DNA of 64,000 nt from Candidatus Sungiibacteriota bacterium (GCA_016432465.1 CP066690.1:786724-850723), one strand, 5' to 3'. Positions 4,260 through 51,428 are shown, numbered from the stretch's first letter. Notes: generated by a model not told the origin, from the letters alone. Made by a program: numbers and translations.

Positions 4260-4341
4260 TCCCCAAGTAGTACAAAGGGGGTGTGCGTGAGGCAACTTGC
4301 GTACACCCTGTTTTTTTCGGCGCAACGAACTTTACTATTTA

Positions 4342-4446
4342 TCCCCCCACCCTCCCAGAATACCCCGCAGCTTGCTGCGGGGATGAATGGGCGCCGTAGA
4401 AATCCTTCCCGCGGGGTCCACTACCCCGCTGGGAAGGTGGGGGGAT
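4342..4446. repeat. TIR element family copy 1 (TCCCCCCACCCTCCCAG ... CTGGGAAGGTGGGGGGA; ~105 bp)
   Basis: 17-bp terminal inverted repeats enclosing a GC-rich core. Near-identical inverted copy at 5820-5925, related copies at 14232, 44094 and 51346. Confidence 0.8.
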
Positions 4447-4476
4447 TTATTCAAACCTTTAAGTGTGCTATAGTAA

Positions 4477-4495
4477 TAGTGTATACAATACACTA
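4477..4495. promoter_or_regulatory. 19-bp perfect palindrome TAGTGTATACAATACACTA upstream of nadD-nrtR (candidate NrtR operator)
   Basis: Exact inverted repeat. The same half-sites recur at 15299, 16774 and 18319. Confidence 0.55.
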
Positions 4496-4523
4496 TATTT
4501 GCGTTATACTATTAAATACCAAC

Positions 4524-5108
4524 ATGAAGATTGGAATTTTGGGCGGGACGTTTGACCCGCCTCATAAGGGCCATAAATTAGTCGCGGGAATAGTTAAAAA
4601 AGAACTGGGGCTAGACCGGATTATTTTTATTCCCACCAAAGATCCGCCCCATAAAGTAAGGCCCAAAGTATCGCCGCAACATCGCTTTTTTCTGACCCGT
4701 CTTTTGGTAAGGGGTAAAAAGGGGTTCCTTGTTTCTGACTTGGAATTTAAACGTCCCGGGAAATCGTATACCGCCGACACCGTTCAGGAGCTTAGAAAAC
4801 TCTACCCCCAAGATAAGCTTTTTTGGATTATTGGCGCCGACGCCCTGCTTTATATGCCGCGCGGCTGGAAAGAGGGCTACAAGATTTTAGATAAGTGCCA
4901 ATTTGTAGTAGTAGTAAGGCCCGGCTATTCTTTGAAAAGCGTGCCCGGCCGCATCCTTCAGAAAGTTATTATTGTAAAAAATAGGGCGCGAGACGATATT
5001 TCAAGTACCGAGATACGCAGATACCTTAAGAGTGGGAAGAGTATTAAGGGTCTTCTCACGCCCCAACAAGAAATTTATATAAAACGTAAGCATCTGTATA
5101 AAACATGA
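4524..5108 (+). CDS. nadD: Nicotinate-nucleotide adenylyltransferase
   Basis: MKIGILGGTFDPPHKGH...PTKDPPHK (HxGH-type nucleotidyltransferase, NadD pattern). The longer ORF from 4281 is a read-through of the upstream repeat. Confidence 0.85.
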   Translation: MKIGILGGTFDPPHKGHKLVAGIVKKELGLDRIIFIPTKDPPHKVRPKVSPQHRFFLTRLLVRGKKGFLVSDLEFKRPGKSYTADTVQELRKLYPQDKLFWIIGADALLYMPRGWKEGYKILDKCQFVVVVRPGYSLKSVPGRILQKVIIVKNRARDDISSTEIRRYLKSGKSIKGLLTPQQEIYIKRKHLYKT

Positions 5109-5788
5109 TAAAACGACAATTTCTCAAAAAATTTGAAAAACCCATGATGACAGTTGATGTTGTCTTTTTTACTATTGATCAAAATAAGTTAAAAGTTCTT
5201 CTCGTAAAAAGGAAATACGATCCCTATGGGGGTTTCTGGGCCCTGCCCGGGGGGTTTATTAGAAAAAACGAAGAGATGTATGAAGCGGCCGCAAGAGAGT
5301 TAAAAGAGGAAACAGGGGTGCGTGGAGTGTATTTGGAGCAGCTTTATACCCTTGGAGCTTTAGGCCGTGATCCTCGGGGCCGGGTGGTTACCGTGGCCTA
5401 TTTTGCGCTGGCACCGCGCCCGACTAAGAAACTTAAGCCCTCTTATGATGCGGCAGAAGCCGGATGGTTTTTGGTGGACAAATTGCCGAGGCTCGCCTTT
5501 GATCATAAGAAAATTATTGTTTATGCTTTGAGACGGGTGCGTAATAAAATTCAATATACCAATGCGGCTTGGAGTTTGCTTCCCGCAACTTTTAGTCTGG
5601 GTGAGGGTCAAAAAGTTTACGAAAGTATCTTGGGCCACCGGCTGGATAAAAGAAATTTTCGCAAAAAGTTTCTATCCCTCGGATTGCTGCAAAAAATATC
5701 TAAGGTTCGCCGCGGGCTTCGTCAGCGTCCGGCCCAACTATATAAATTTAAAACAAAAAAATACGTGGAACTTAAAAGGTTTTTCTAA
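5105..5788 (+). CDS. Nudix hydrolase with C-terminal winged-helix region; NrtR-like NAD-metabolism regulator / ADP-ribose pyrophosphatase
   Basis: Intact Nudix box GFIRKNEEMYEAAARELKEETGV, C-terminal ~90-aa helix-rich extension, ATGA overlap with nadD, and NAD-gene context. Confidence 0.55.
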   Translation: MIKRQFLKKFEKPMMTVDVVFFTIDQNKLKVLLVKRKYDPYGGFWALPGGFIRKNEEMYEAAARELKEETGVRGVYLEQLYTLGALGRDPRGRVVTVAYFALAPRPTKKLKPSYDAAEAGWFLVDKLPRLAFDHKKIIVYALRRVRNKIQYTNAAWSLLPATFSLGEGQKVYESILGHRLDKRNFRKKFLSLGLLQKISKVRRGLRQRPAQLYKFKTKKYVELKRFF

Positions 5789-5819
5789 CCCTCAATATAA
5801 ATATGGCAGTCAAAAATAA

Positions 5820-5925
5820 ATCCCCCCACCTTCCCAGTGGGGTAGTGGACCCCGCGGGAAGGATTTCTACGGCGTCTATTCATCCTCGCAGCAAGCTACG
5901 GGGTATTCTAGGAAGGTGGGGGGAT
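5820..5925. repeat. TIR element copy 2 (inverted relative to copy 1)
   Basis: Reverse complement of 4342-4446 with a few substitutions. Confidence 0.8.
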
Positions 5926-5943
5926 AAACAATATCTTGGGTTT

Positions 5944-7860
5944 TTGCGCCTAGCAGCAGCGTCACCTCCTCTTAGAATTGGTGACGTAGACTATAATGTT
6001 AAAAAAATTTTGGAATTTGCCAAACGCGCTGATAAAGAGTCGGTTGATATCCTCGTATTTCCCGAGCTTTCCATTACTGCCTATACTGCGTCGGATTTAT
6101 TCTTTAACCGCACACTTCTTGCGCAGGCCCTTAACGGCCTTGCTAGAATTCGTCTGGCTTCCCGCGCTCTGGGCAGCGTACTTGTTGTGGGCGTTCCTAT
6201 TGCGCAGGAAGGAAAGCTTTTTAACACCGCGGCCGTGGTTTTTAAAGGAAAAGTTTATGGTCTCGTTCCGAAAACCTACGTTCCCGGATACAAAGAGTTT
6301 TATGAAGAGCGCTGGTTTGCTTCGGCCCGGGATTTGGTAGTCAAAGAAATTATGCTGGGTGGCCAGATGATTCCCTTTGGCACTGATATTTTGTTTCGTA
6401 TGCCCAAAATTTCCGGCGCGGTTCTGGGCGTGGAAATCTGCGAAGATCTTTGGATGCCTATGCCTCCCAGCTCTTTTCAGGTCCTCCGCGGCGCAACTAT
6501 TATTGCCAATCTTTCTGCATCCAACGATTTGGTGGGAAAGGCGGACTATCGCAGAGCGCTTGTTACCCAGCAGTCTGCCCGTGGAGTTTGTGCCTATGTT
6601 TATAGTTCCTGCGGCGTGCATGAATCAACTACGGATGTTGTTTTTGGGGGACATGCCTTGATTGCCGAAAACGGTGCGCTTCTTGCCGAGTCCAAACGAT
6701 TTATAAGAGAGGGCGAGATGACCCTCGCCGATATTGATGTAGAACATATGCTAGTGGATCGCGAACGCATGACGAGTTTCGGCGAATCAATACACGAGTC
6801 GCCGCAAAAAGAATTTCGTATAATTGATATTCCTTTACCAATACCTTTTCATCCGATTCCCAGACGTTTTATTGACCCTAATCCCTTTGTTCCTTCCAAT
6901 CCGGAGGAACGAGACCTTCGCGCCAAAGAAATTTTCTCCATTCAGGTGGCGGGGCTGGCCAAGCGTCTGGAGGCGGCCAAAATAAATAAAATGATTTTGG
7001 GTCTTTCTGGGGGACTGGATTCTACTTTGGCGCTGCTTGTAGCAGTTAAGACAGCCGAAACCCTTAACCTGCCTCATAAAAATATTTTTACCTATACCAT
7101 GCCCGGATTCGGAACTTCGCATCGTACTAAAAATAATGCTGTAAAACTGGCTCGGGCTTTAGGGGTAAACATAGAAACTATTGATATAATCAAAGGCGTA
7201 CTTCAGCAGTTCAAAGACATTAAACATAGTCCTAACGAAGAGAATACTGTCTTTGAAAATGCGCAGGCAAGATACCGCACCTATACTCTTATGGATAAGG
7301 CCAATCAAATTCATGGCTTGGTGATTGGCACCGGCGATCTTTCGGAAATTGCTCTGGGCTGGAATACTTACACCGGAGATCATATTGCGCATTACAACGT
7401 AAACTGCAGTGTACCTAAAACTTTGGTAAGATATCTGGTGCAATGGGCGGCTGAAACCCAAGTGGATAAAAAAACGCGGCGCATTCTTGAGGATATTTTG
7501 GCCACACCCATCTCACCCGAGCTTAGGAAAAATCATAAACCCGGCGAAATTTCTCATCGGACCGAAAAGCTTATCGGGCCTTACGAGTTGCATGACTTTT
7601 TCCTGTATCACTTTATCCGTTGGGTCTCTTCTCCTAAAAAGATTCTTTTCTTGGCGGAGCACTCATGGGGCAAAAAATACAAAACCCCAGAACTTAAAAA
7701 ATGGCTTAAGGTATTTTTGCAAAGATTTTTTGGCTCTCAATGGAAAAGGTCTGTGGCCACTGACGGCCCCAAGGTTGGATCGGTTTCTCTCTCTCCCCGC
7801 GGGGACTGGCGAATGCCGTCCGATGCCGAGGTTAAAATGTGGAGTGAGGAATTAAAATGA
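5944..7860 (+). CDS. nadE: Glutamine-dependent NAD+ synthetase (N-terminal nitrilase-like + C-terminal NAD synthase domains)
   Basis: VDILVFPELSITAYT (CN-hydrolase) and LGLSGGLDSTLAL (PP-loop). The start is proposed at TTG 5944 (LRLAAASPPLRIGDVDYN...), because the 5' extension of the ORF back to 5803 only translates the repeat. Confidence 0.8.
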   Translation: MRLAAASPPLRIGDVDYNVKKILEFAKRADKESVDILVFPELSITAYTASDLFFNRTLLAQALNGLARIRLASRALGSVLVVGVPIAQEGKLFNTAAVVFKGKVYGLVPKTYVPGYKEFYEERWFASARDLVVKEIMLGGQMIPFGTDILFRMPKISGAVLGVEICEDLWMPMPPSSFQVLRGATIIANLSASNDLVGKADYRRALVTQQSARGVCAYVYSSCGVHESTTDVVFGGHALIAENGALLAESKRFIREGEMTLADIDVEHMLVDRERMTSFGESIHESPQKEFRIIDIPLPIPFHPIPRRFIDPNPFVPSNPEERDLRAKEIFSIQVAGLAKRLEAAKINKMILGLSGGLDSTLALLVAVKTAETLNLPHKNIFTYTMPGFGTSHRTKNNAVKLARALGVNIETIDIIKGVLQQFKDIKHSPNEENTVFENAQARYRTYTLMDKANQIHGLVIGTGDLSEIALGWNTYTGDHIAHYNVNCSVPKTLVRYLVQWAAETQVDKKTRRILEDILATPISPELRKNHKPGEISHRTEKLIGPYELHDFFLYHFIRWVSSPKKILFLAEHSWGKKYKTPELKKWLKVFLQRFFGSQWKRSVATDGPKVGSVSLSPRGDWRMPSDAEVKMWSEELK

Positions 7861-7869
7861 TACCCGAAG

Positions 7870-8060
7870 CAGAGCCTAAAGAATTTAAAAAGTGGAGCCC
7901 CACGCGCAGAGCGCGTGGCACCCTGTGTTGCGGGGTTCCTCCCACGCTCGCGCGTGGGGCGGAACCCCGCACCGAGGGTCATTTCATCCACGGGAAGTAA
8001 GACTTCCCACGGGCAAAGCCCGTGGCCCTCTGGTGCGCGGGTAGCTATGGGGTGGCCACC
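7870..8060. repeat. Cluster of GC-rich palindromes (REP-like), including GGGAAGTAAGACTTCCC at ~7992-8008
   Basis: CCACGCGCAGAGCGCGTGG, CCCACGCTCGCGCGTGGG, GGGAAGTAAGACTTCCC and CACGGGCAAAGCCCGTG hairpins in ~190 bp of noncoding DNA. Confidence 0.6.
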
Positions 8061-8317
8061 CGCCGGAGGATTTATATGATGACGACTACAATACTGCTAA
8101 GAAAGCTTTAAGATATTTAGTGGAGTCAATAAACAGGAATTTTAAGGCTGCTTTATCTTTGGAAGAAATAGTCAAGCTATATCAAAAGTCCTATGAAGAT
8201 GTTTTGAGTAAAAAAAGACAGCGTAGGACAAGGTGATTAAATTTTATACCTGCTCGGTTAGGTGGTCTTCTCATCTTAATCATAACAACAGGCGGCCTTA
8301 AGGCCGCCTTGCTGGGT

Positions 8318-8590
8318 TTACTGGGCTTTGGTTTTTGCTTCTTGTTTTGCCCGGGCTCGGGCCAAAGCTATAGGAAGGAAGTATTTTTGCCAAATATTAT
8401 TGGCAACATTTAGCAGTGTCGCGCCTACCATCCAACAGCCAAAATATAATCCTATTCCAAATACTACTCCCTTAGAATTCCCACTCTCGAAATATCCATC
8501 CGGCCCAATAACTCCTAAAAGGTAAAATAGGTTCCACGCCAGAGGTGTAAGCATAAAAACAGTTCCCAAAAGCGCATAAAAAATATACAT
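8318..8590 (-). CDS. Small membrane protein (2 predicted TM helices)
   Basis: Hydrophobic 90-aa ORF with a basic C-terminal tail. A hairpin GGCGGCCTTAAGGCCGCC lies just downstream at ~8292-8309. Confidence 0.35.
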   Translation of the reverse strand: MYIFYALLGTVFMLTPLAWNLFYLLGVIGPDGYFESGNSKGVVFGIGLYFGCWMVGATLLNVANNIWQKYFLPIALARARAKQEAKTKAQ

Positions 8591-8682
8591 TTTCTCTCCT
8601 TTCGGGTCGGCCCTAGGTTACCCTAAGCCAGCCACCTTTTCTATTATAGAATTTATAATGATATACGTCAAGTACAAAAGCT

Positions 8683-8716
8683 TGACAATTACGCTAGAGT
8701 TTGTTATTCTTTATAG
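8683..8716 (+). promoter_or_regulatory. Sigma-70-like promoter (TTGACA-17-TATTCT) plus GGGAGG RBS for pncA
   Basis: Consensus -35 and an acceptable -10, about 30 bp upstream of ATG 8743. Confidence 0.45.
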
Positions 8717-8742
8717 AGGGCCTACAAAGGGAGGCTAGAACA

Positions 8743-9336
8743 ATGTCTAAAGATGCGCTGATTATTGTTGATGTTCAGAACGATTTTTGTCTGGGTGGAT
8801 CCTTGCCTGTGCCGAACGGCGATAAAGTGGTAGAGCCGTTGAACAGAATGATTGGTAAGGCGGCAAAAAAAGATGGAGGGCTTATAATCGCTTCGCGCGA
8901 TTGGCATCCAAGAGAAACAAACCATTTTGCCGAGTTTGGGGGACGCTGGCCCGTACATTGCGTACAGGGAACCAAGGGTGCTGAATTTCACCCCGGACTT
9001 TTACTGCCAGCCGACAAAGCCATTATAGTTTCCAAGGGCATGGCAAAAGATGAAGATGCCTACTCTGCTTTTCAGGGTTCCGCAGTGCTTACGACCGCAG
9101 ATGATATAACTACTGTAACTATGTATTTGCGCGATATTCTGGGCGGCTGCGGGGTTGATACTCTTTATATCGGGGGTCTAGCCACTGATTATTGTGTAAA
9201 AGCAACTGCGCTTGATGCGCGCAGATTCGGATACGAAGTATATTTGCTGATTGATGCTTGCCGGGGGGTGGCCGCAGAAACCACCTCGGACGCCTTGATA
9301 GAAATGGCCCGGGCAGGGGTGAAGTTTATTTTATAG
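8743..9336 (+). CDS. pncA: Nicotinamidase/pyrazinamidase (isochorismatase family)
   Basis: MSKDALIIVDVQNDF... catalytic Cys in IGGLATDYCV, metal-binding DWHP. Confidence 0.8.
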   Translation: MSKDALIIVDVQNDFCLGGSLPVPNGDKVVEPLNRMIGKAAKKDGGLIIASRDWHPRETNHFAEFGGRWPVHCVQGTKGAEFHPGLLLPADKAIIVSKGMAKDEDAYSAFQGSAVLTTADDITTVTMYLRDILGGCGVDTLYIGGLATDYCVKATALDARRFGYEVYLLIDACRGVAAETTSDALIEMARAGVKFIL

Positions 9337-9397
9337 ATGACATCATAATTAAGTTTTTGGAGCCGCCTGTTGGCGGCCTTTAGATTATACATTTTAG

Positions 9398-9426
9398 ATC
9401 GTTAGATTTGCCTTTAAAACATAAAT
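9398..9426 (+). promoter_or_regulatory. Sigma-70-like promoter TTGCCT-17-TATAAT for pncB (preceded by hairpin terminator ~9364-9380)
   Basis: Spacing and hexamers are good, with a GCGGAGGA RBS before ATG 9486. Confidence 0.5.
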
Positions 9427-9485
9427 CTTGTATAATAAATTTAGAGTTTCCAAGGGGTCTTTGACTGCCAGCGGAGGATACAACA

Positions 9486-10955
9486 ATGCTGGAGGCGCAG
9501 CTTATTTTTGACCGTTACCATGCAACAATGGATCAGTTTGCTTCGGGAGAGCACGCCCTGATTGGTGGTAAACCTTTAGCCGACCTGCCGGCCACATTTT
9601 ACGTATCGCAGCGCAAACTTTCTTTTGCTCCTTGTGTTGGTCATGAGCGTCTGCTGGAGGGTTTGATGAGACGAAACATTGATGTACCCAGAGCGCGGTT
9701 TCTTCGTGAGGATAAGGCAGGACTTTCTCGAACCGCCGAGCGTCTTGCTTCAACCTCTAACCCTTTCTTGATTCGTTGTGTAAAGCCCGGAACTATTATG
9801 TTCGCCCGGGAGCCTTTTGCAGATATCACAGGTCCTTTTGCCGAGACGCAGATGATGGAAGTAAGGTTTGAGCACGCATTTGACGAACCCATGACGGTTG
9901 CGGGCAGGGCTTTAGCCATACGGCTTGATGCGGGAGAACGCTGGATTTCTGATTTTTCCTTACGTCGGGATGGAAGTCTTGGTAGAGCGGTGGACATTGC
10001 CAAGTACTCTTATATCGGAGGTTTTGACGATACCTCCAACATGGAAGCCGCGTTTCTTTTGGACATTAATGCCGTGGGCACCATGGCTCATTATCTGGTG
10101 CAGGCGTTTCTGGTGTCTAGTCGCTATCCCCAGCGTTCGGAAAAAGGAGTACGCAAACACTTTCAACAAGCATGTTTTGAACAATGGTTAGATGCGCACC
10201 CCAAAGGCACAACCCTGCTGTTGGACACTATTACCTTAAGGCTTGGAGTAATCCACACTATTCGTGCTGCTAAAAGTTCGGAAGGCAGACGCGGGGCTTT
10301 AAGGGCAGTACGTATTGACTCTGGTAATTTGATTAAAAACGCGCTTTGGGTGCGTGCGATGCTGGATGCCAATGCCCTTGAAGACGTTAAGATTATTCTC
10401 ACATCTGACCTTGACAGGAATCTGATTGCCGAGATTGTTAAACGCTGTCCGGCAGTATACGGATTTGGCGTAGGCACAAAACTTGCCGCCGAGGTGGAAA
10501 ACGTCGCCGGTGTTATATTTAAGCTTTCCCAGATTGATGACCTGCCGACCCTCAAGTGTTCCGAAACTCCCGGGAAAGAAACTCTCCCCGGTCGCCTGCA
10601 GGTATGGCGGTGTATTGATCATGAGGGATTTTTCGTCAAAGATGTAATTGGTACTGATGGTTGGGCGGCAAGCGAACAAGATAGAAAAGAATTTTCTTCT
10701 GCCTTTCCGCTGTTGCAGCCGTGGTGGGGCAATGCTTTCAAGACTGACTTTCTGCCTTATGAACAGCCGCGTATGCCGACCATTCAGGAACAGCGCGTGT
10801 TTGTACAGCAACAGGTTAAAAGATTTCGTGATATCCATAACTATCCGGTAGAACTCTCCAGTCTGACCAAAGAACGGATTAGGTATCTTACAGAAATGAT
10901 GACCCGTGATGAGATGGGAGAGAGTGGGGTCGTCATGGTTGACTATCCATCGTAG
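9486..10955 (+). CDS. pncB: Nicotinate phosphoribosyltransferase
   Basis: 489 aa with the GFGVGTKL motif and a NAPRTase-like N-terminus. Adjacent to pncA. Confidence 0.65.
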   Translation: MLEAQLIFDRYHATMDQFASGEHALIGGKPLADLPATFYVSQRKLSFAPCVGHERLLEGLMRRNIDVPRARFLREDKAGLSRTAERLASTSNPFLIRCVKPGTIMFAREPFADITGPFAETQMMEVRFEHAFDEPMTVAGRALAIRLDAGERWISDFSLRRDGSLGRAVDIAKYSYIGGFDDTSNMEAAFLLDINAVGTMAHYLVQAFLVSSRYPQRSEKGVRKHFQQACFEQWLDAHPKGTTLLLDTITLRLGVIHTIRAAKSSEGRRGALRAVRIDSGNLIKNALWVRAMLDANALEDVKIILTSDLDRNLIAEIVKRCPAVYGFGVGTKLAAEVENVAGVIFKLSQIDDLPTLKCSETPGKETLPGRLQVWRCIDHEGFFVKDVIGTDGWAASEQDRKEFSSAFPLLQPWWGNAFKTDFLPYEQPRMPTIQEQRVFVQQQVKRFRDIHNYPVELSSLTKERIRYLTEMMTRDEMGESGVVMVDYPS

Positions 10956-10961
10956 TTTTTG

Positions 10962-10998
10962 AAGCCGAAACGCAACCGCGTTTCGGATTTTAGTTTTT
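10962..10998 (+). terminator. Rho-independent terminator (GCCGAAACGCAACCGCGTTTCGGATTTT)
   Basis: Hairpin plus T-run after the pncB stop. A second hairpin CCGAGAGTTCACGCTCTCGG at ~11013-11032 serves the convergent minus-strand gene. Confidence 0.7.
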
Positions 10999-11047
10999 TG
11001 AAAATGATAAAGCCGAGAGTTCACGCTCTCGGTCTTTGACTTAACTG

Positions 11048-11872
11048 TTAACTGCAGGGCAAGGCGTTTAAGGTTTGTAGCATCAACTTGCCTTCGCCGG
11101 ACTCGCCCTGCTCCGGATCGCCAACAAAAATAGTATAAGAGCAGTTTTTGATGGGGTTTTCGTCATCTTTTCTGGTGAAGTCTTGAGACTCCCAACGTTC
11201 TTGTGTGGAAATAAAGGCGGTGATAGTTATATGGTGGCTCACCAAAAGAACTTCTCTTTCGGAGAACTCACGGATAAGTTTTCCCGAAAGAAGCCGCATC
11301 CGTCCCTCTACCCCCAGAACATTTTCTCCCTGCGGATAGCAATAGTCATATTTGCCGTCTCTCAAGTAAATGTACCTTTGTTCTGGGTGGAAGGTTTCCA
11401 TTACTCTCCAGTTATTGTAGAGACCGGCAAGCCCGATGTCTATTTCTCTAATAAGCGGTTCAGTCTCCTGTTTTATTCCAGCAAGTTCCGGCCATCCGCG
11501 GGTCATTCCTTCCAGTGTCTGTTTGGTGCGAAGATACGGCGAGACCAGAATAACGTCGGGAAGCCGTGCATCAGGAAGAATTTTCAGGGTTCGCCCCAGA
11601 CGTTCTGCCTGCAGCCAGCCGGTATCAGTTAGGGGTGTTAGTCGGTTACTGTAAGGCAGGAAATACTTTCTATACATTTTTACTGCCAACCCACGCAGTT
11701 CCTTTGAGGCTTTTACATACGGCCAATGTCTTTGGAACTTATCTAGATTAAATTCCTGCTCAAAGAGCTTTACAAAACGCTGATATTCCGGATCTTTCCT
11801 TTGCTGTTCTTTGACTCTGTTAAATTCTGATTCTCCGTGGCGCACTAAGATGACTTTACGCGGCCATTTCAT
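11048..11872 (-). CDS. Histidine phosphatase superfamily protein (phosphoglycerate-mutase-like)
   Basis: N-terminal ILVRHGESEFN (RHG catalytic motif) and C-terminal LLVSHH second histidine. Confidence 0.6.
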   Translation of the reverse strand: MKWPRKVILVRHGESEFNRVKEQQRKDPEYQRFVKLFEQEFNLDKFQRHWPYVKASKELRGLAVKMYRKYFLPYSNRLTPLTDTGWLQAERLGRTLKILPDARLPDVILVSPYLRTKQTLEGMTRGWPELAGIKQETEPLIREIDIGLAGLYNNWRVMETFHPEQRYIYLRDGKYDYCYPQGENVLGVEGRMRLLSGKLIREFSEREVLLVSHHITITAFISTQERWESQDFTRKDDENPIKNCSYTIFVGDPEQGESGEGKLMLQTLNALPCS

Positions 11873-11957
11873 TCGTTAGTCCCCCCGCAAGGTTTCTTTA
11901 ATCGTACCACGATTTCTCTGATTTTGCAAACTAAAACCGAAGCATGAGCTTCGGTTG

Positions 11958-13145
11958 CTATCTTCCCTCCAAAATGGTCTGCATAATCATTCCGACAGTT
12001 GACCAGTCAAGCAGTCGTGTCTCAATAATTTCGCCCAATGTTTTTACTTCAAGTGAGGTTTGTTCTCCTTCAGCGATATTTCCAAAGACCGTGCGGTTTC
12101 GAGCATTAGTCTCAAAATACTCAATTTCTTCGGGTTTAAGTCGGATAGAAAAAAGGTGGGTGTGATGCGCAGAAAAAGTTCCGGCAACCTGACGCGAACC
12201 ATGGGCAACCAGGCGGCATTTTTCAAATTCTTTTCCGGTTTCTTCCTTAATCTCCTCCAGGGCAATTTCTTCCGGTGTCAGCCACCATTGGGGTGAGGAG
12301 CCGCTGGGCAGCTCGTGGATAAATCCATCCGGAGTTCTCCCCGAAGGCCGGAACTCTTTTACCAAAACAATTTTTGTATTCAGCGGGTTGAAAGCTTCCT
12401 GCCATAGCACTGTGGCCGAGGTATCGGTTCTGGACAGGGCAAAATCAAACTCGCTTGTTTTGAATCTATTTTCCGAGGCAATAAAGATCCGTGCCTGTAG
12501 TATCCATCTGTAAACAAATGACCCCTTAGCATTCTTGCGGGAGCACCAAAGTACCTCGGCCCCTTCCAGTATATTTCCTGCTGTCTTTAGACCTTCATAC
12601 CACAATTGGAATGATTTCGCGTTCCAGATGTGAAGCGGTATGTCGCATTCACCGCCATTTCTCTCGGCGCCGCCTCCAATGTAGGAGACCGCAAAATCAA
12701 GGGTGTCTTTCAGCGTTTGAAAGCGCGGGACGTCTTGCCTGTCTGCCGTCAGTTCAAGATATTTATTTCTAGGAAGATCAGGTGGAGCGCCATAAACTAT
12801 TTTGCCCGAGCGTACCCAAAGACCAAATTCCACGTTGGTGGTAAAGGCAGGCATGGTAGTAAGGTTTCTTGGCACCCAAAACACAATAAGATCCGCCCTG
12901 TTAAGGCCTATTCGCTCCCAAGCAATCTGGTGTTTGTATTCTTGATTGTTTATATCTTCTTCTCTTGGTCCGTCGCGATTTTCCGGTATAAATACATGCC
13001 CGTCATAGCCAAGTTCCTCCAGAATTTTGATTGCCCCGGGAATGCGCCAAGAGGGAGTAGTGCGTTTCCTCGGCGTCGGCCCTGCAAGAAATATAGATTT
13101 TTTAACGTGCGTAGGAAAAGGTTCTCTGGTATAAATCAGTTCCAT
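11958..13145 (-). CDS. Two-domain protein: N-terminal Rcl/DNPH1-like nucleoside 2-deoxyribosyltransferase-fold domain fused to C-terminal Nudix hydrolase
   Basis: N-terminal IFLAGP...ADLIVFWVP...TTNVEFGLWVRSGK fits the Rcl/NDT pattern. The C-terminal half has the Nudix box LPSGSSPQWWLTPEEIALEEIKEETG. Confidence 0.5.
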   Translation of the reverse strand: MELIYTREPFPTHVKKSIFLAGPTPRKRTTPSWRIPGAIKILEELGYDGHVFIPENRDGPREEDINNQEYKHQIAWERIGLNRADLIVFWVPRNLTTMPAFTTNVEFGLWVRSGKIVYGAPPDLPRNKYLELTADRQDVPRFQTLKDTLDFAVSYIGGGAERNGGECDIPLHIWNAKSFQLWYEGLKTAGNILEGAEVLWCSRKNAKGSFVYRWILQARIFIASENRFKTSEFDFALSRTDTSATVLWQEAFNPLNTKIVLVKEFRPSGRTPDGFIHELPSGSSPQWWLTPEEIALEEIKEETGKEFEKCRLVAHGSRQVAGTFSAHHTHLFSIRLKPEEIEYFETNARNRTVFGNIAEGEQTSLEVKTLGEIIETRLLDWSTVGMIMQTILEGR

Positions 13146-13260
13146 GACGTCCTCCCCCTGCTGGCAATGTTTAAAGTTTAAACTTTTTTGTTAAAAAAAA
13201 CAAGCGAAAACCCACACCGAATTTTGGTGTGGGAAGTCTGACTTTCTGTGGGTGATTGGG

Positions 13261-14142
13261 CTATAGTATTACTGCTCCTTCATATTGCCAGTAGGGCCGG
13301 ATACGTCCGTTAGGAGAAAAAATTATATTTCTCAATTCTTCCGAGTCTGGCTGGATAGAAAGACAGTTATTAAGACAGAAATTCTGGCCGTTGACGTCAA
13401 AAACTACTGCACCATGGGTTAGGGTATACAGTCTCCTTCCTTGTGTAAAAAGAAATTGCTGGATATCCCCAAACTGTTCAGTGGTTAGCTGGTGCTCACT
13501 GGTCCACTCCCATACTTTTTTGTCTCTGGCCAGTCTTTCCTCTGGTTTTTCGACCGGCGTTCCGGTAAGTTGTTCCACCCTGTTTGTTTTGGCAAATTCA
13601 ATAAGACGTGTCAGCTCTTTGCTGTTATCAATAAACCCCCCGGTCAGAACGCAAGTTAGTCGCACCGAGAAAAGCATGTCGTGCAATGTTTGGATAAGAC
13701 GCGGCAGGTCAAAATAACTTTTGGGAGAGTGAAAAAAGAATTCTCCATTTTTCCCCGGATCGTAGTGGGCAATAGATATGGCAATAGTAGTCATACCAAG
13801 TTCGTACCACATTTTGAGGTGGGAAGCGTATACTTCCGGTTTTCGAGCAAGCAGACTGCCGTTGGTTTGCAGTTCAATAAGAGGAAATTCAAAGGGCTCA
13901 AGCTCTTGTAGAAATCGCGTAATTTGTTTTGGAAAGATCGTAGGTTCACCCTTGCCGGTCAGCATGACTGTGGTACATCCGCATTGTTTGGCTAGTCGGC
14001 AGGCAATTTTGAAGTTCCGCCAATTTACCTCCGGCTCCTTAGTCTCTATCCCCTCAGGTAGTGTCATTTTGGAAACACAGGGCGAGCAACAGGCATTACA
14101 GGCCTCACTTCCGGCGATAATGCTGAAGGTCTGGATGCGCAT
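13261..14142 (-). CDS. Radical SAM enzyme (small activase/QueE-like fold, family unassigned)
   Basis: CNACCSPC equals CX3CX2C, plus the glycine-rich TVMLTGKGEPT SAM-binding motif. 293 aa. Confidence 0.6.
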   Translation of the reverse strand: MRIQTFSIIAGSEACNACCSPCVSKMTLPEGIETKEPEVNWRNFKIACRLAKQCGCTTVMLTGKGEPTIFPKQITRFLQELEPFEFPLIELQTNGSLLARKPEVYASHLKMWYELGMTTIAISIAHYDPGKNGEFFFHSPKSYFDLPRLIQTLHDMLFSVRLTCVLTGGFIDNSKELTRLIEFAKTNRVEQLTGTPVEKPEERLARDKKVWEWTSEHQLTTEQFGDIQQFLFTQGRRLYTLTHGAVVFDVNGQNFCLNNCLSIQPDSEELRNIIFSPNGRIRPYWQYEGAVIL

Positions 14143-14231
14143 CTTCTACCCTCCGGTCCTGCGGTCTCTTTAAGGGTAACATAGAAATATTACTTTGTCC
14201 AGCCAAAAAGGAAGCCGCCCGCGGGGTTTCA

Positions 14232-14331
14232 TCCCCCCACCCAGGGAACCGCGGCTGGAAGGCCGCGGAGGAATGGCATAGTCTCTCGCGAAACGAGAAA
14301 CACAAGATAACCCACCCGGGAGGGTGGGGGG
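14232..14331. repeat. TIR element copy 3 (variant termini CCCCCCACCC/GGGTGGGGGG, different core)
   Basis: Inverted G/C-run termini enclosing the CCGCGGCTGGAAGGCCGCGG hairpin. Confidence 0.6.
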
Positions 14332-14333
14332 AC

Positions 14334-15206
14334 TCATCTAAACGCGAATTTTTCCTGCAGGCTTTTGAAAAAATAGTTTTTTTCAAGTTCCAAAAAGCGC
14401 ACCAATCTCTCGGATTTTTTAATAATTATGCGGTCTCCCGGGCGCAGCGCGAGAGCCCGTTCCGTGTCAGTCGAGAGCATGACGTCCACCGGCTCTTTTG
14501 TATCCTGCAGTAGAAATCGGCCACTTTTTCTAAAACCCCCAATCTTCACGGTGATGGTTCTGTCCCTTTTAATAACGAGGCTCGGCGTAGGCAGACTATG
14601 GTCCATTAATTCTGTGATGATAAAACATTTGATGTCGGGCATAACAATGGGGCCGTGGGCGGATAGATTGTAGGCAGTAGAGCCGGTTGCCGTAGAAACC
14701 AAAACCCCGCTGCCGTGGATTTTTTGTACACAATGCTCGTCCACATACACTTCAATATCAACAACCCCCGAAAGATTCTGGACCGCAATCTCATTCAAGG
14801 CGTATCCGGACAAAATTCTTTTGCCTCTACGTTCAACCACTGCTCGCATCATCATATGCGGTACCACGCGGTATTTACGGCGCAAAACACTAAAGAGTCC
14901 CGCTACGAAGTTTTTGGGGTTTCTGACGGAGGCAAGAAATCCTACATGACCAAGGTTCAGGCCCAAAATACGCGGATTCCAACGCTGAAATTTTTGAGCA
15001 GCTTCCAGTATGGTTCCATCCCCGCCCAGTACAATCAAAAGTTCCGGGGCTGATTTTTTTTGCCGCGGAACCGCATTGGATGCCAGAATTTGAATTTTGG
15101 TAAAACGTTTTTTTAGGAGTCGGGCAAGTTTGTTTTCCCAAAATTTGGCAGCTTTAACTTCCGTCCGAAAATAAAAAGCTACTTTTTTAAATGCTAAGCC
15201 GGACAT
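14334..15206 (-). CDS. nadK: NAD+ kinase
   Basis: GGDGT motif (LIVLGGDGTILEAA) and NE/D motifs; 290 aa. Confidence 0.8.
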   Translation of the reverse strand: MSGLAFKKVAFYFRTEVKAAKFWENKLARLLKKRFTKIQILASNAVPRQKKSAPELLIVLGGDGTILEAAQKFQRWNPRILGLNLGHVGFLASVRNPKNFVAGLFSVLRRKYRVVPHMMMRAVVERRGKRILSGYALNEIAVQNLSGVVDIEVYVDEHCVQKIHGSGVLVSTATGSTAYNLSAHGPIVMPDIKCFIITELMDHSLPTPSLVIKRDRTITVKIGGFRKSGRFLLQDTKEPVDVMLSTDTERALALRPGDRIIIKKSERLVRFLELEKNYFFKSLQEKFAFR

Positions 15207-15261
15207 GCGGTAATTTTATCACGTTTAGCCCTTTTTTGCCAAGTAGACTCCGGTTAACACC

Positions 15262-15290
15262 TTGACTTATTTTCACCGGCGTACTATACT
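15262..15290 (+). promoter_or_regulatory. Sigma-70-like promoter TTGACT-17-TATACT
   Basis: The -10 ends 8 bp before the palindrome at 15299. Confidence 0.5.
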
Positions 15291-15298
15291 AATACTGG

Positions 15299-15317
15299 TA
15301 GTGTAGCGTGTACACTA
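15299..15317. promoter_or_regulatory. 19-bp perfect palindrome TAGTGTAGCGTGTACACTA (candidate NrtR operator) in the nadK/15342 divergent region
   Basis: Exact inverted repeat, same family as 4477. Confidence 0.55.
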
Positions 15318-15341
15318 TTTGGTTCTTTTGGGGAGGATGTT

Positions 15342-15803
15342 GTGAGGACGGTTGAGATTGTGGTACGCAACAAAGACGGGAAATTATTTTTCTACGGTGA
15401 TGGGATTTATTTTAATTTTCTTAGTGCCTTTCCTTTTTGGGGAGGAGAGCTGTGTTTACTACGAGATGGCAAGATCATTGATCGCGCTCGCATTGATGAA
15501 CACGGCACACATGCGCCTACTGTATGCTTTTTGGGGCTAAAGAGTGTGGGCACGTATGCAACAACAGATCTTTTTGTCGTTCAGTTCCAAGAGGGTGATC
15601 TGCTAAAAATTGAGTTTCTGGACACGGTCGGCGAATTACGGCAATGGGTTATTAATGACTTTATTGATACGGAGGTTTGGAAGCGGGTAAAAGAGAGTGG
15701 TCATACCACCCCATCCTATGCGGTTCTGGAGTTATATGCGGAAGAATGGGAGCGTTTATGTAAAGAGATTAAGGATAAAAACATAGATACATTTGAAATT
15801 TAA
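15342..15803 (+). CDS. Hypothetical protein (GTG start, RBS GGGAGGA)
   Basis: 153-aa ORF immediately downstream of the operator-bearing promoter. Confidence 0.4.
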   Translation: MRTVEIVVRNKDGKLFFYGDGIYFNFLSAFPFWGGELCLLRDGKIIDRARIDEHGTHAPTVCFLGLKSVGTYATTDLFVVQFQEGDLLKIEFLDTVGELRQWVINDFIDTEVWKRVKESGHTTPSYAVLELYAEEWERLCKEIKDKNIDTFEI

Positions 15804-15911
15804 GAAACAAGGCACCCGTCTAAGGGTGCTTTAATGCAAAATTTTTTGATTGACTGTTGTATTTAAAGGGGGTACTATTGTTTAGGTTTGGATACAAGGG
15901 ACTCTTAAATA

Positions 15912-16718
15912 ATGCGGCAGCCGCTTCATAAAAAGGCGCGTCTGGAAAAGCCGTCTGTATATCCCGAAAGATTTTCTGTCCCCGACGACAAAGTAGACTG
16001 GTGTAGCTATTTTGGAGAATACCGCCCGCCTTATTTTGTGGCACCAGAAATTTTGGAGCGGTTTTATCAAAATCCGTCAGAAGTAGATCCAGAAGATTGC
16101 TGTAAGATTAAAAGGCCGTTTTACAGTTTTGAAAATAAGGTGGAGCTTGATAGTTCTAATCGGCCGAGAAATCCCAGAGGCAGAACCGGTCTTGCGGGTA
16201 GGGGCATACTTTGGAGGTGGGGAGCTAACCTAGCAGTTGATACGGTTTTAAGCAGGCTTAATGCAGAAACGGACGAGTTGGAGTTGCTTCTTATAAATAG
16301 AAAAGACACCGGAGAGCTCGCTCTTCCTGGGGGTATGGTGAATAAAGGTGAAAAGATTCGGGAGGCACAAGAGCGGGAATTTGAAGAAGAAACAGGTCTC
16401 AAGATTTCTATGGAAGACTCCGAAACGGTTTATTGCGGTTATGTGGATGATCAAAGAAACACAGATAACGCTTGGATGGAAACCGTGGCCTCGCATAAGC
16501 ACATGGGTAGTAATCAGGCAAGTACTTTAAGTTTTCGGGCTGGCGATGACGCCGAGAATGTTCTTTGGCATTCTTTGAAACCCGAGCTCATCACTAATCT
16601 TTATGCCAGTCATGACGAAATTGTTAGGCTGGCTATGTATAGGTTTTACGATCGCTGTGGCGGTTGGTTGACTGCAAAAACAAAGGAACAAATTGAGGCA
16701 GTGATAGTCCGTCAGTAG
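15912..16718 (+). CDS. NUDT9-like ADP-ribose pyrophosphatase (Nudix)
   Basis: RNPRGRTGLAGRGILWRWGAN, Nudix box GGMVNKGEKIREAQEREFEEETGL and RNTDNAW resemble the NUDT9/ADPRase family. Confidence 0.6.
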   Translation: MRQPLHKKARLEKPSVYPERFSVPDDKVDWCSYFGEYRPPYFVAPEILERFYQNPSEVDPEDCCKIKRPFYSFENKVELDSSNRPRNPRGRTGLAGRGILWRWGANLAVDTVLSRLNAETDELELLLINRKDTGELALPGGMVNKGEKIREAQEREFEEETGLKISMEDSETVYCGYVDDQRNTDNAWMETVASHKHMGSNQASTLSFRAGDDAENVLWHSLKPELITNLYASHDEIVRLAMYRFYDRCGGWLTAKTKEQIEAVIVRQ

Positions 16719-16773
16719 TACGGACTTTTTTCATTGACATATTGGCTATTACAGGCTATAATTTAAATAGCAG

Positions 16774-16792
16774 TAGTGTGCTATGCACACTA
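16774..16792. promoter_or_regulatory. 19-bp perfect palindrome TAGTGTGCTATGCACACTA just downstream of TTGACA-17-TATAAT promoter (candidate NrtR operator)
   Basis: Exact inverted repeat overlapping the predicted transcription start of the 16834 gene. Confidence 0.55.
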
Positions 16793-16833
16793 TTTGATCC
16801 TTGAGTAATTGGTGCCTGTAGAGGAGAAAGAAA

Positions 16834-18168
16834 ATGTATGAGAAAGTCTACGACGTCGCCATTATTGGCGGAGGGGTTACTGGCACAGCCCAAGCGTATA
16901 TCTTTTCTTATTTTGTGGAGGGGGTTTCCCGGATTTTGCTCGTTGAGAAAAATAATAATGTGGCGCTGGTAAATTCGCACACAGTCAGCAACGCCCAAAC
17001 ACTGCATGGCGGCGATACAGAAACAAATTTTGGTTTAGAGAAGGCGTTGAAGATGAGAGACGCGGAGCGAATGCTCTCGGCGTTTCTTGAGAAATTTAGT
17101 CACGGTCAGGGCGCATTCCGCCGGCTCTATAAAATGGCTTTTGGAGTAGGGGAGAAAGAGGTTCGGATTCTCTCCGAGCGCTTTGCCATGATTAGGAGCT
17201 ATTATCCTACTTTGCAGTTTCTGGGACGCGAGGAGCTGGTGCGCATTGAACCGAAGCTCTTGGAAGGACGTGATCCCAGCATACCCGTAGCAGCGCTTTA
17301 TCGTCCCAATGGTTATGCGGTGGATTATCGAAAACTGGCAGAGTGTTTTGTGGCTGAAGCCAAAAAAACAGGCAAAGTGGAAATTTTACTTGGCACAAAA
17401 ACGAATGAGATCATAAGGCGGGGCAATCTCTTTGAGATACGCACATCCAAAGGCAATTATCTTGCTAAAGCCGTGATGGTGGCAGCAGGACCCTATAGTC
17501 TTCTTTTTGCTCACGCCTTGGGTTATGCCGGGGATTATACAATTCTTCCGGTTGCCGGAAATTTCTACCACACTAAGGCTGTCTGTTTTCCTGGAAAGGT
17601 ATATGGTGTTCAAGATCCTGTATTACAGTTTACCGCAGCGCATATTGATTCTTCCGTGGATAATCCTGGAAAGATGCGTCTTGGTCCTACGGCTGACGTT
17701 GTTCCTCTTCTTGAAAAACACCACTGGATGACTTTTATAGACTTCTTGCGTACGGGGATCATTGGGTTACGCGGTGCCCGCGCTATTGCCAAGATTTTTT
17801 GCAACTGGAAGGTTGTGAAATTTGCAGCGCGTAACATCGTCTACAAGCTTCCTGTTGTTGGTAAATGGTACTTTTTGAAAAAGGCAGCGCAGAAACTCGT
17901 ACCCACCCTTCGTTATCGTGATATCCAGTTTGCCAAAGGAGAGGGTGGTATCAGGCCGCAGTTGGTGAACGTAGAAGAGGGGCGACTGGAAATGGGTACA
18001 GGGAAGATTTTGGGCGATAGTATTATTTTTGATATCACCCCTTCGCCCGGGGCTTCGGACTGTTTGAGGAATGCTGTGGTAAACGCTAAGCACGTCGTCC
18101 AACTTTCAGGCGGTGCATACGTTTTTGACGAAGAAAGTTTTCAGAAGGAGTTCGGCCTCCACACCTAG
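16834..18168 (+). CDS. FAD-dependent oxidoreductase (DAO/L-2-hydroxyglutarate-oxidase-like); candidate functional substitute for L-aspartate oxidase
   Basis: N-terminal dinucleotide-binding motif YDVAIIGGGVTGTA, 444 aa. It sits immediately upstream of nadA-nadC and carries the shared operator. Confidence 0.5.
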   Translation: MYEKVYDVAIIGGGVTGTAQAYIFSYFVEGVSRILLVEKNNNVALVNSHTVSNAQTLHGGDTETNFGLEKALKMRDAERMLSAFLEKFSHGQGAFRRLYKMAFGVGEKEVRILSERFAMIRSYYPTLQFLGREELVRIEPKLLEGRDPSIPVAALYRPNGYAVDYRKLAECFVAEAKKTGKVEILLGTKTNEIIRRGNLFEIRTSKGNYLAKAVMVAAGPYSLLFAHALGYAGDYTILPVAGNFYHTKAVCFPGKVYGVQDPVLQFTAAHIDSSVDNPGKMRLGPTADVVPLLEKHHWMTFIDFLRTGIIGLRGARAIAKIFCNWKVVKFAARNIVYKLPVVGKWYFLKKAAQKLVPTLRYRDIQFAKGEGGIRPQLVNVEEGRLEMGTGKILGDSIIFDITPSPGASDCLRNAVVNAKHVVQLSGGAYVFDEESFQKEFGLHT

Positions 18169-18318
18169 CGGTGGAGGTTTTTCTTTTATCTTTCGTCCTC
18201 CAGAAAACGCGGCAGCTTGGGAAGTCAGACTTCCCTTGCTGCCGAGTAGTTCATCACCTTTATCATTGAGCGGTTGATGCCCTCTTGACTTTTTTTGAAG
18301 AGCGCGTTACACCTTACT

Positions 18319-18337
18319 TAGTGTACAGGTTACACTA
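18319..18337. promoter_or_regulatory. 19-bp perfect palindrome TAGTGTACAGGTTACACTA upstream of nadA (candidate NrtR operator)
   Basis: Exact inverted repeat. Confidence 0.55.
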
Positions 18338-18358
18338 ATTGGACCCTTGAAAAAGGAG

Positions 18359-19474
18359 ATGGCCGTGCAAGAAATAGTATCCGGCGATATCCTACCGGCG
18401 CGGGAGGCCATTGAAGCCATTGATGAGACTGACCTTGGGCCGCCGATTGAAATACCAGCAATATCCCCGGACGCTTTCCCGGAAAATATCACGGATGAGG
18501 AGCGGAAGTTTTTAAGATCCGAAATTCAACGCCTCAAAGAGGAGCGTAATGCCCTAATTTTGGCCCACAATTATATGCCCAAAGACGTGCAGGATATTGC
18601 CGATGTGGTGGGGGACTCGCTTTATCTTGCCCAGCGGGGTACGGCATCCAATGCGGATATTCTTTGTGAGGCCGCAGTGCTTTTTATGAATCAGATTTTG
18701 GCAATCATGAAAAAGCCGCACCAGAGGGTTTTGGCGCCGAGTATGTCGGCCTTATGTTCTTTGGCAGCGCATGCGGACGCGGAAAAAATCCGGGCGTGGA
18801 GGCAAGAGCATCCGGACGGCATTGTCATAAGTTATGTAAATACCTACGTGGACGTAAAAGCCGAAAGTGATTATTGCTGTGCGTCCGCGAACTCCCCCAG
18901 GGTTATTCTTCATGTTCTCGCGCATCATCCCGGAAAACCTATTCTTTTTCTCCCCGATGTTTATCTTGGTTTTTATGCGGCAAAACTTCTGCAGCAGCAA
19001 GGCGAGTCTTTGGATCGGCTGTGGCTTATGATGGGCGTATGTCACGTGCACGATCGCATACGGCCTCATCATGTAGAAGCGGCACGCAAACTCTATCCCG
19101 GAGCGGCAGCCGTGGTGCATCCGGAATGCGGTTGCACCAGCGCCTGTATGCGTCAGATCAGTGATGGTTTGGTGCCTTCCAGCATGATGCAGTTTCGTTC
19201 CACTCAAGGCATGATTGATTTTGTAAAACAATCACCCCAAAGGGTTGTGATTGTGGCGACGGAAGTCGGGAACCTAGTTCCTATGTCCAAGGCCGCACCA
19301 GATAAAGTTCTGATTCCTGCCAACCGCGAGGCAGTCTGCGCTTTCATGAAGCAAAATACACTGCGCGGCGTTTATGGGTCGTTGCGCGATCTCAAATATG
19401 AAATTTCGATTGATGATCCGGAACTTGCTAAGCGCGCCCGCATCCCCATTGAGCGGATGCTCGCGATTGTGTAA
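18359..19474 (+). CDS. nadA: Quinolinate synthase
   Basis: ILAHNYMPKDVQDIADVVGDSLYLAQ and the three-Cys cluster context. ATG 18359 with AAAAGGAG RBS is preferred over TTG 18347. Confidence 0.85.
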   Translation: MAVQEIVSGDILPAREAIEAIDETDLGPPIEIPAISPDAFPENITDEERKFLRSEIQRLKEERNALILAHNYMPKDVQDIADVVGDSLYLAQRGTASNADILCEAAVLFMNQILAIMKKPHQRVLAPSMSALCSLAAHADAEKIRAWRQEHPDGIVISYVNTYVDVKAESDYCCASANSPRVILHVLAHHPGKPILFLPDVYLGFYAAKLLQQQGESLDRLWLMMGVCHVHDRIRPHHVEAARKLYPGAAAVVHPECGCTSACMRQISDGLVPSSMMQFRSTQGMIDFVKQSPQRVVIVATEVGNLVPMSKAAPDKVLIPANREAVCAFMKQNTLRGVYGSLRDLKYEISIDDPELAKRARIPIERMLAIV

Positions 19475-44274: not shown

Positions 44275-44282
44275 TAAAAGCG

Positions 44283-51330: not shown

Positions 51331-51345
51331 ACGTATTCCGGATTT

Positions 51346-51389: not shown

Positions 51390-51428
51390 TTCATTGTCAC
51401 AGAACTACCGTCGTGTTAATCTTTAAAA

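Follow-up and report, generated by a model that had tools for sequence, protein, structure and literature searches.

A candidate NrtR regulon in the NAD island of a Candidatus Sungiibacteriota genome

The operators of NrtR, a repressor acting on genes of nicotinamide adenine dinucleotide (NAD) metabolism, have been described as palindromes of about 21 bp with a GT-N7-AC core, located over promoters or between the promoter and the start codon (Rodionov et al. 2008, PMC2330246). In cyanobacteria the regulon consists of pncB-nadD-nrtR-nadE and of nadA, each headed by an operator, and gel-shift assays with two NrtR proteins showed that ADP-ribose (ADPR) detaches them from DNA (PMC2330246). NrtR of Mycobacterium smegmatis (MSMEG_3198) is an auto-repressor of nadA/B/C and is also released from DNA by ADPR (PMC6800001). 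In the crystal structure of a relative, AraR of Bacteroides thetaiotaomicron (BtAraR), with DNA, residues K179, R180, N181 and K184 of the helix and R205 of the wing read GTGT-N7-ACAC (PMC4666351). For bacteria of the Candidate Phyla Radiation (CPR), literature searches on NrtR or on the synthesis of NAD gave nothing relevant. We have analysed a stretch of 64,000 nucleotides (here called the window) from the genome of Candidatus Sungiibacteriota (CP066690.1:786724-850723), a CPR bacterium of the Parcubacteria branch. It includes a compact NAD island with four perfect 19-bp palindromes, TAGTGT-N7-ACACTA. Judging from their sequence and position, these are very probably the operators of the NrtR protein encoded in the same island at 5105-5788.

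The arrangement can be compared directly with the described systems. With the cyanobacterial regulon of the Nostoc/Anabaena type it shares the gene order nadD-nrtR-nadE, an operator heading the operon, a separate nadA operator and the GT-N7-AC core. The exact TAGTGT-N7-ACACTA is present at three cyanobacterial loci (L022, L023 and L031), this comparison of motifs being based on the cyanobacterial loci retrieved here, and NuhA of Synechococcus PCC 7002 has an intact Nudix box, as does NrtR of the window. The differences are that the host is a CPR bacterium, that pncB lies outside the operon and has no site, and that there are extra operators at a flavoprotein gene of the DAO/Mqo type and at a gene for a 153-aa protein. 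NAD kinase is not mentioned in the 2008 regulons (PMC2330246), whereas here its gene, nadK, is divergent to an operator.

NrtR of Shewanella oneidensis (SO1979; PDB 3GZ5, 3GZ6 and 3GZ8), for which ADPR is an anti-repressor in vitro (PMC2330246), has the same two-domain architecture, with similarity over residues 8-217. It differs in acting on a single operon, prs-nadV, through tandem sites and in having a degenerate Nudix box without hydrolase activity, whereas the window has four single sites and an intact box. Among solved structures BtAraR (BT0354; 5BS6 and 5DD4) is the nearest to our protein, with GTGT-N7-ACAC as operator core and with identical base-contacting K, R, N, K and R, but it senses L-arabinose, controls arabinose genes rather than NAD genes and has a degenerate Nudix box. 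M. smegmatis NrtR, in contrast to the protein of the window, uses the palindrome GTTTTCGA-N7-TCGAAAAC, has an inactive Nudix box and is encoded divergently from nadABC (PMC6800001). NadR (Enterobacteria), NiaR (Bacillus/Clostridium) and NadQ likewise repress NAD synthesis genes through promoter palindromes, but they belong to other protein families and have other effectors (NAD, niacin) and other operators (for example, TGTTTA-N6-TAAACA for NadR) (PMC2330246). The candidate regulon of the window is a further instance of the NrtR type of regulator known since 2008.

The window contains exactly four occurrences of TAGTGT-N7-ACACTA, at 4477, 15299, 16774 and 18319, and 100 dinucleotide-preserving shuffles contained none. 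Four exact inverted repeats with these positions and sequences had been reported in an earlier note made from the sequence alone, and all four were recovered as exact pattern matches. If up to three mismatches are allowed the window yields 17 matches against 13.2 expected, so that only the four exact palindromes stand out. A lone palindrome with two mismatches at 23382 and a weak match at 40017 were dismissed since each lies inside an open reading frame (ORF). The four palindromes are all intergenic, 21-41 nt upstream of a start codon, and are followed by nadD-nrtR(-nadE), the 153-aa gene, the gene for a flavin adenine dinucleotide (FAD)-dependent oxidoreductase and nadA-nadC, respectively (Table 1). 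A matrix constructed from 81 foreign sites ranks them first to fourth in the window (26.9, 25.6, 17.6 and 16.1), the next match scoring 9.7. When the same matrix was applied to 30 mononucleotide shuffles, the maxima had a mean of 8.3 and the highest was 15.7.

The nadD-coupled regulator is a protein of 227 aa which is annotated in the Candidatus Sungiibacteriota genome merely as "NUDIX hydrolase". Pfam places a NUDIX domain at residues 17-138 and an NrtR_WHD domain at residues 157-215. The NrtR layout (Nudix plus winged helix-turn-helix) attributed to it in the earlier note is therefore present, and the protein is also similar to solved members of the family. In the PDB it matches BtAraR (5bs6, 1.1e-41), S. 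oneidensis NrtR (3gz5, 1.4e-32) and EF2700 (2fml, 1.3e-32), and there is weak similarity to the winged helix of NadQ (7q91, 4e-10). The NCBIfam model NF050029 (ADPR-responsive repressor) is matched at 1.1e-51 with 176 bits, below its 400-bit equivalog cut-off, so that the protein is not an equivalog of the clade on which that model is based. Its sequence clearly places it in the NrtR family. When 28 relatives were aligned, the helix DKRNFRKK proved invariant and the Nudix box (G-x5-E-x7-REUxEExGU) intact. Aligned with BtAraR, the contact residues K182, R183, N184, K187 and R208 are identical to K179, R180, N181, K184 and R205, while a sixth, K204, is replaced by Q, so that five of the six are kept. 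Given these shared contact residues, the palindrome is the predicted target of the 227-aa protein in both sequence and spacing. Domain and family scans of the island proteins revealed no second regulator encoded in the NAD island.

We examined the conservation of the sites in two ways. In the first, starting from the regulator and using one genome per species, we assembled 80 loci with NrtR relatives at 45-58% identity. These span Planctomycetes, Chloroflexi, Cyanobacteria, Proteobacteria, Acidobacteria, CPR bacteria and DPANN archaea. The sites are indeed conserved in related genomes: the exact palindrome is present in 35 of the 80 loci. The loci total 1.12 Mb, in which we counted 37 exact sites (0.07 expected) and 36 sites with one mismatch (2.4 expected), nearly all of them directly upstream of nrtR, pncB, nadA, nadE, pncA-like, NAMPT-like, nadK-divergent or FAD-oxidoreductase genes. 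In CPR relatives (63-65% identity) a site is found upstream of nadD-nrtR-nadE (L081 and L085), in the nadK-divergent region (L081, L083, L085, L087 and L214), upstream of both the flavoprotein gene and nadA (L087) and upstream of the flavoprotein gene (L214 and L215). The same palindrome precedes nadA in L003, L008, L087, L142 and L186. In the second approach, metagenomes were scanned for the motif itself (TAGTGTA-N5-TACACTA, 14 specified bases), giving 120 stretches. NAD-island homologues are present in 22 of these, the site usually lying 5-80 nt upstream of nrtR, nadA, nadC, nadD, nadE or pncB. Among 20 further stretches analysed with Pfam, the site is upstream of an NAPRTase, an isochorismatase and an MFS transporter gene (one case each), the others being unrelated.

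Five of the loci (L003, L008, L011, L030 and L036) are from Woesearchaeota and Nanobdellati and encode an NrtR 52-54% identical to the CPR protein. In these DPANN contigs the identical palindrome is found ahead of nadA, pncB, the flavoprotein gene and a NAMPT-like gene; archaea therefore appear to make use of a repressor and operator of the bacterial type.

The window encodes an RpoD-type sigma-70 factor, which justifies a search for promoters of the sigma-70 type. Palindromes 1 to 3 begin 2-11 nt after a good -10 element. For two of them the promoter scan identified the consensus promoters (15262-15290 and 16734-16762) that the earlier note had placed just 5' of the repeats. For nadD the scan proposed, as an alternative to the extended -10 element listed in Table 1, TATACA-17-TATACT at 4482-4510, which overlaps operator 1. 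In CPR relatives the strand opposite nadK has the same order of -35, -10, about 5 nt and palindrome.

If the palindromes are NrtR operators, an NrtR dimer would bind each of them, the winged-helix domain reading each (TA)GTGT half-site by insertion of the helix DKRNFRKK into the major groove and of the wing arginine into the minor one. The bound protein would cover the start region of the four promoters and so repress nadD-nrtR(-nadE), the 153-aa gene, the FAD oxidoreductase gene and nadA-nadC. Since an operator heads nadD-nrtR(-nadE), the system would be autoregulated. Consumption of NAD would supply ADPR (or a close relative), which would bind the Nudix domain and remove NrtR from the DNA, and NAD synthesis would be derepressed. 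NrtR, having an intact Nudix box, may in addition degrade the molecule to which it responds, as has been reported for NuhA. In this scheme binding by NrtR, the direction of control and the effector are all taken from what is known of the family.

A number of observations weigh against this interpretation. Operator 4 is not preceded by a good -10 element (TACACC), and all of the promoters were called by hexamers of the sigma-70 type, CPR promoters themselves being unmapped. In the window, sites are missing from the pncA-like isochorismatase gene and from pncB, the latter being the target most often found for NrtR in the other phyla sampled. Specificity was judged on 64 kb of a 923-kb genome. 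The 80 loci were retrieved by means of the recognition-helix peptide and consequently sample one NrtR specificity class and not all NrtR. Finally, about 80% of the stretches from the motif-first scan have no recognisable NAD gene beside the palindrome; these could be chance matches, many of which are to be expected for 14 specified bases in so much sequence. In favour of the NrtR regulon proposed in the earlier note are the domains, the similarity to solved structures, the contact residues, the GT-N7-AC core, the co-occurrence of protein and site across phyla and the motif-first scan.

An alternative is that the palindromes are operators of another factor encoded elsewhere (for example, a NiaR-, NadR- or NadQ-like protein) and that NrtR binds other sites or acts as an enzyme only. 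Most of the genome lies beyond the region searched for regulators, and the intact Nudix box of NrtR makes an enzymatic role possible. We nevertheless consider this very unlikely in view of the absence of other regulators among those searched for in the island, of the palindrome accompanying nrtR across phyla (often directly upstream of nrtR itself) and of the agreement of the GTGT-N7-ACAC geometry and the contact residues with the BtAraR-DNA structure.

The palindromes could also act as RNA, in the form of 5' hairpins affecting stability, termination or translation. Use of the predicted promoters would place three of the four in transcripts, the hairpins (8-10 bp) have energies of -6.9 to -12.1 kcal/mol with z-scores of -2.3 to -3.8, and one was flagged as terminator-like on the minus strand, but any palindromic operator would fold likewise. 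In the 80 loci the pair is broken in 34 of 36 sites with one mismatch, and 33 of 35 sites with two mismatches are uncompensated. The arms are thus conserved as sequence and not as pairing, which favours recognition of two DNA half-sites. In addition, the hairpin loops (3-5 nt) vary freely and the palindromes match no Rfam family; at gathering thresholds the window gave two tRNAs only. A role as RNA is accordingly highly improbable in our estimation. It is scarcely credible that the palindromes lack a regulatory role and are what is left of a mobile element or dispersed repeat, or recur by chance. A dispersed 119-nt repeat does flank nadD-nrtR in this genome and two of the motif-first palindromes adjoin insertion sequence transposases, but the palindrome is absent from the 119-nt repeat, the sequences around the four copies show no relationship beyond the promoter hexamers and the palindrome itself, shuffles contained no copies and the position of the site relative to orthologous genes is kept in distant genomes.

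If the palindromes are taken as NrtR operators, membership of the regulon can be considered gene by gene. The four operator-headed units given in the earlier note stand. nadE, which it omitted, probably belongs to the regulon because the order nadD-nrtR-nadE is conserved in relatives, as in the cyanobacterial operon; in this genome the 119-nt repeat is inserted between nrtR and nadE. The nadE reading frame is open from an ATG at 5803 and would from there translate the repeat copy at 5815-5933, the CN_hydrolase match starting at residue 50. Translation from an in-frame TTG at 5944 would yield an N-terminus typical of NadE, and the true start is probably near this position.

The inclusion of nadK and of the gene for a NUDT9-like protein in the earlier list is more doubtful. 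From its position operator 2 would serve to block the rightward promoter; it does not overlap the nearest promoter-like site in the leftward direction (15242-15213), from which it is separated by 57 nt. Yet nadK adjoins NrtR sites in eight loci (L015, L024, L081, L083, L085, L087, L214 and L008), and this recurrent pairing in CPR and DPANN sequences is suggestive, so that nadK may be counted as a possible member. The 268-aa NUDT9-like protein matches human NUDT9 (1q33) in two stretches, over both the N-terminal and the Nudix domain, as well as the NUDT9-homology domains of TRPM2 (1e-16 to 1e-32), and by this similarity is likely to be an ADPR pyrophosphatase, as had been suggested. Control of its gene by NrtR is doubtful because a hairpin and a promoter-like site of its own (TTGACT-17-TACTAT, 15850-15878) separate it from the 153-aa gene. 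In the window, neither the three-mismatch search nor the matrix scan located an operator upstream of the pncA, pncB, NUDT9-like, radical-SAM, deoxyribosyltransferase-like or histidine-phosphatase genes.

Operator 3 precedes the gene for the FAD-dependent oxidoreductase, which had been described as a 'NadB substitute'. Identity with NadB was rejected: the protein matches Pfam DAO, Mqo and Pyr_redox_3 and not the succinate dehydrogenase/fumarate reductase flavoprotein family. Its best NCBIfam match is L-2-hydroxyglutarate oxidase (5e-24) and its PDB matches are 8w75 (5.7e-12) and 4x9m (2.3e-10), the nearest named models and structures being L-2-hydroxyglutarate oxidase/dehydrogenase, glycerol-3-phosphate oxidase and malate:quinone oxidoreductase. 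No NadB was found among the ORFs of at least 450 aa in the window, the window covering 7% of the genome. An NrtR site lies upstream of the flavoprotein gene or its homologues in seven loci (the window, L085, L087, L214, L215 and the DPANN loci L008 and L036), and the gene adjoins nadA in four (the window, L087, L214 and L008). On this comparative evidence the flavoprotein is a conserved NrtR target, and it is plausible that it supplies NadA; the substitution for NadB would go a step further and is conjectural. Homologues also occur away from nadA, in L088 (with salvage genes only) and in L015 and L036 (with a methyltransferase), and in unrelated contexts without sites in L089 (cyanobacteria), L090 (another Parcubacteria genome) and L213. 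Those of L089 and L090, with neither NAD context nor site, indicate that the flavoprotein family as a whole is not NAD-specific.

Certain close homologues of the flavoprotein (P0121, P0123, P0124, P0126 and P0130; L087 4324-6138) reach 590-620 aa through an N-terminal extension of about 160 aa that resembles several membrane helices, which suggests a membrane-anchored form. We asked if the 153-aa protein corresponds to this extension but there was no match and the idea was rejected. An unrelated 139-aa gene occupies the position of the 153-aa gene in L081 and was likewise rejected as its counterpart.

The 153-aa gene itself is a real gene with gene-like codon usage. A word-index search with its product found the protein itself alone, while full HMMER detected 48 remote homologues; no Pfam family was matched. 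The AlphaFold2 model (pLDDT 91) has a beta-rich domain followed by two helices, and no PDB neighbour of this model was better than E = 0.046. One homologue on an independent contig, P0245, has an exact NrtR site upstream of its gene and a NadD-like gene downstream. The coordinates on L212 tied to this family are 96-114 and 211-717.

We propose, tentatively and with rather less than even confidence, that the NrtR regulon of CPR bacteria and DPANN archaea has members beyond the 2008 list. The chief of these would be the flavoprotein with its own operator, perhaps as an undescribed, non-orthologous replacement of L-aspartate oxidase or as the supplier of another NadA substrate (for example, oxaloacetate or dihydroxyacetone phosphate). 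The second would be a family of 150-170 aa without a Pfam model or structural neighbour, to which the 153-aa protein belongs. If this is true, the flavoprotein would in either role complete a de novo NAD pathway in organisms that are usually deemed poor in cofactor synthesis.

Very few regulators of CPR bacteria have assigned targets. The analysis provides a functional name for a gene annotated "NUDIX hydrolase" and defines a small candidate transcriptional regulon in a genome of about 0.9 Mb, so that the NrtR system is now named in a lineage in which it was previously unnamed. It also describes a regulator-operator pair whose palindrome is almost unchanged from cyanobacteria to DPANN archaea. 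Because it is nearly constant across lineages, the palindrome can be used as a probe for NAD-related genes in uncultured lineages. Such a probe yields three candidates for missing NAD functions: the DAO/Mqo-type flavoprotein, the uncharacterised small protein family and, possibly, the radical-SAM protein. The understanding of how NrtR works is unchanged by these results, which are chiefly useful as a way into those NAD-linked genes of CPR and DPANN genomes that still lack an assignment.

Table 1. Coordinates of genes, predicted promoters and predicted NrtR operators in the window
Feature	Coordinates	Strand	Evidence and remarks
Extended -10 TGcTATAGT, nadD-nrtR(-nadE) operon	4466..4474	+	Sequence inspection; palindrome 1 begins 2 nt later
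NrtR operator 1 (predicted)	4477..4495	.	TAGTGTATACAATACACTA; exact match; foreign-site matrix score 25.6; 28 nt to nadD ATG
nadD (nicotinate-nucleotide adenylyltransferase)	4524..5108	+	Pfam CTP_transf_like 9.6e-26; stop overlaps nrtR start in ATGA
nrtR, Nudix + winged-helix, 227 aa	5105..5788	+	Pfam NrtR_WHD 1.4e-20 and NUDIX 6.8e-20; Nudix box intact
nadE (glutamine-dependent NAD synthetase), probable third gene of operon	5944..7860	+	Pfam CN_hydrolase and NAD_synthase; nadD-nrtR-nadE order in L081, L085
pncA-like isochorismatase	8701-9336		
pncB	9486-10955		
Histidine phosphatase		-	
Deoxyribosyltransferase-like protein, 395 aa	within 11048-14142	-	
Radical-SAM-like protein, 293 aa	within 11048-14142	-	
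nadK (NAD kinase)	14334..15206	-	Pfam NAD_kinase; divergent from operator 2 and 153-aa gene
Promoter TTGACT-17-TATACT	15262..15290	+	Promoter scan; palindrome 2 begins 8 nt past -10
NrtR operator 2 (predicted)	15299..15317	.	TAGTGTAGCGTGTACACTA; exact match; matrix score 17.6; 24 nt to GTG 15342
153-aa protein, undescribed small family	15342..15803	+	Motif EYGTHAAxxCFxG; GTG start; operator 2 upstream
NUDT9-like Nudix protein, 268 aa	15912..16718	+	PDB 1q33 (human NUDT9) 2.6e-39; no upstream operator
Promoter TTGACA-17-TATAAT	16734..16762	+	Promoter scan, 12/12 consensus; palindrome 3 begins 11 nt past -10
NrtR operator 3 (predicted)	16774..16792	.	TAGTGTGCTATGCACACTA; exact match; matrix score 16.1; 41 nt to ATG 16834
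FAD-dependent oxidoreductase, DAO/Mqo/L-2-hydroxyglutarate-oxidase group, 444 aa	16834..18168	+	Pfam DAO, Mqo, Pyr_redox_3
Promoter-like TTGACT-17-TACACC	18285..18313	+	Sequence inspection; -35 TTGACT (18285-18290) consensus, -10 weak; below scan threshold
NrtR operator 4 (predicted)	18319..18337	.	TAGTGTACAGGTTACACTA; exact match; matrix score 26.9, best in window; 21 nt to ATG 18359
nadA (quinolinate synthase)	18347..19474	+	Pfam NadA 1.2e-85; likely start ATG 18359 or GTG 18365
nadC (quinolinate phosphoribosyltransferase)	19486..20322	+	Pfam QRPTase_C/N; 11 nt past nadA

Several other genes were seen close to nrtR or to its palindrome. The radical-SAM-like and deoxyribosyltransferase-like genes recur beside nrtR in loci of Woesearchaeota, Levybacteria, Saccharibacteria and Sungbacteria (L011, L053, L076, L085 and L205); one of these, the metagenome stretch L205, has an exact NrtR site 5 nt in front of the gene for a radical-SAM homologue with 57% identity. 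The two proteins gave no informative PDB matches. In two CPR loci (L214 14227 and L215 5565) an exact site heads an operon encoding a protein of 320-340 aa, an adenylosuccinate-synthetase-like protein and a NadE-NadD fusion, and a PurA-like gene is also found near nrtR in L015. A Pseudanabaena contig (L022 8778-8822) has two paired NrtR sites about 1.2 kb away from nrtR, just in front of a gene for a PP2C phosphatase on the other strand, and the NAD cluster of the CPR locus L083 includes a PP2C and kinase pair. On two separate motif-first contigs (L133 2218 and L170 4254) the palindrome is located 30-40 nt upstream of an enolase gene, which could be chance or a further target of the NrtR family.

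The dispersed 119-nt repeat is GC-rich and is itself a hairpin with 18-nt arms. Copies were found at 4333-4451 (+), 5815-5933 (-), 44089-44278 (-) and 51342-51395, together with a partial copy at 14310-14332. Two of the copies, which are 92% complementary, are inverted around nadD-nrtR, one just upstream of the nadD promoter and the other between nrtR and nadE. Between nadE and pncA, the segment 7890-8075 is GC-rich and strongly self-complementary and terminates in GGAGGATTTAT, which resembles the end of the 119-nt repeat. We saw no convincing ORF in it; none of its Rfam matches had an E below 0.1, and Rfam gave nothing credible in 7800-8750. Elsewhere in the window, an ORF of 493 aa on the minus strand (32834-34315) combines LexA DNA-binding, S24 peptidase and N6/N4 DNA methylase domains, an unusual fusion.

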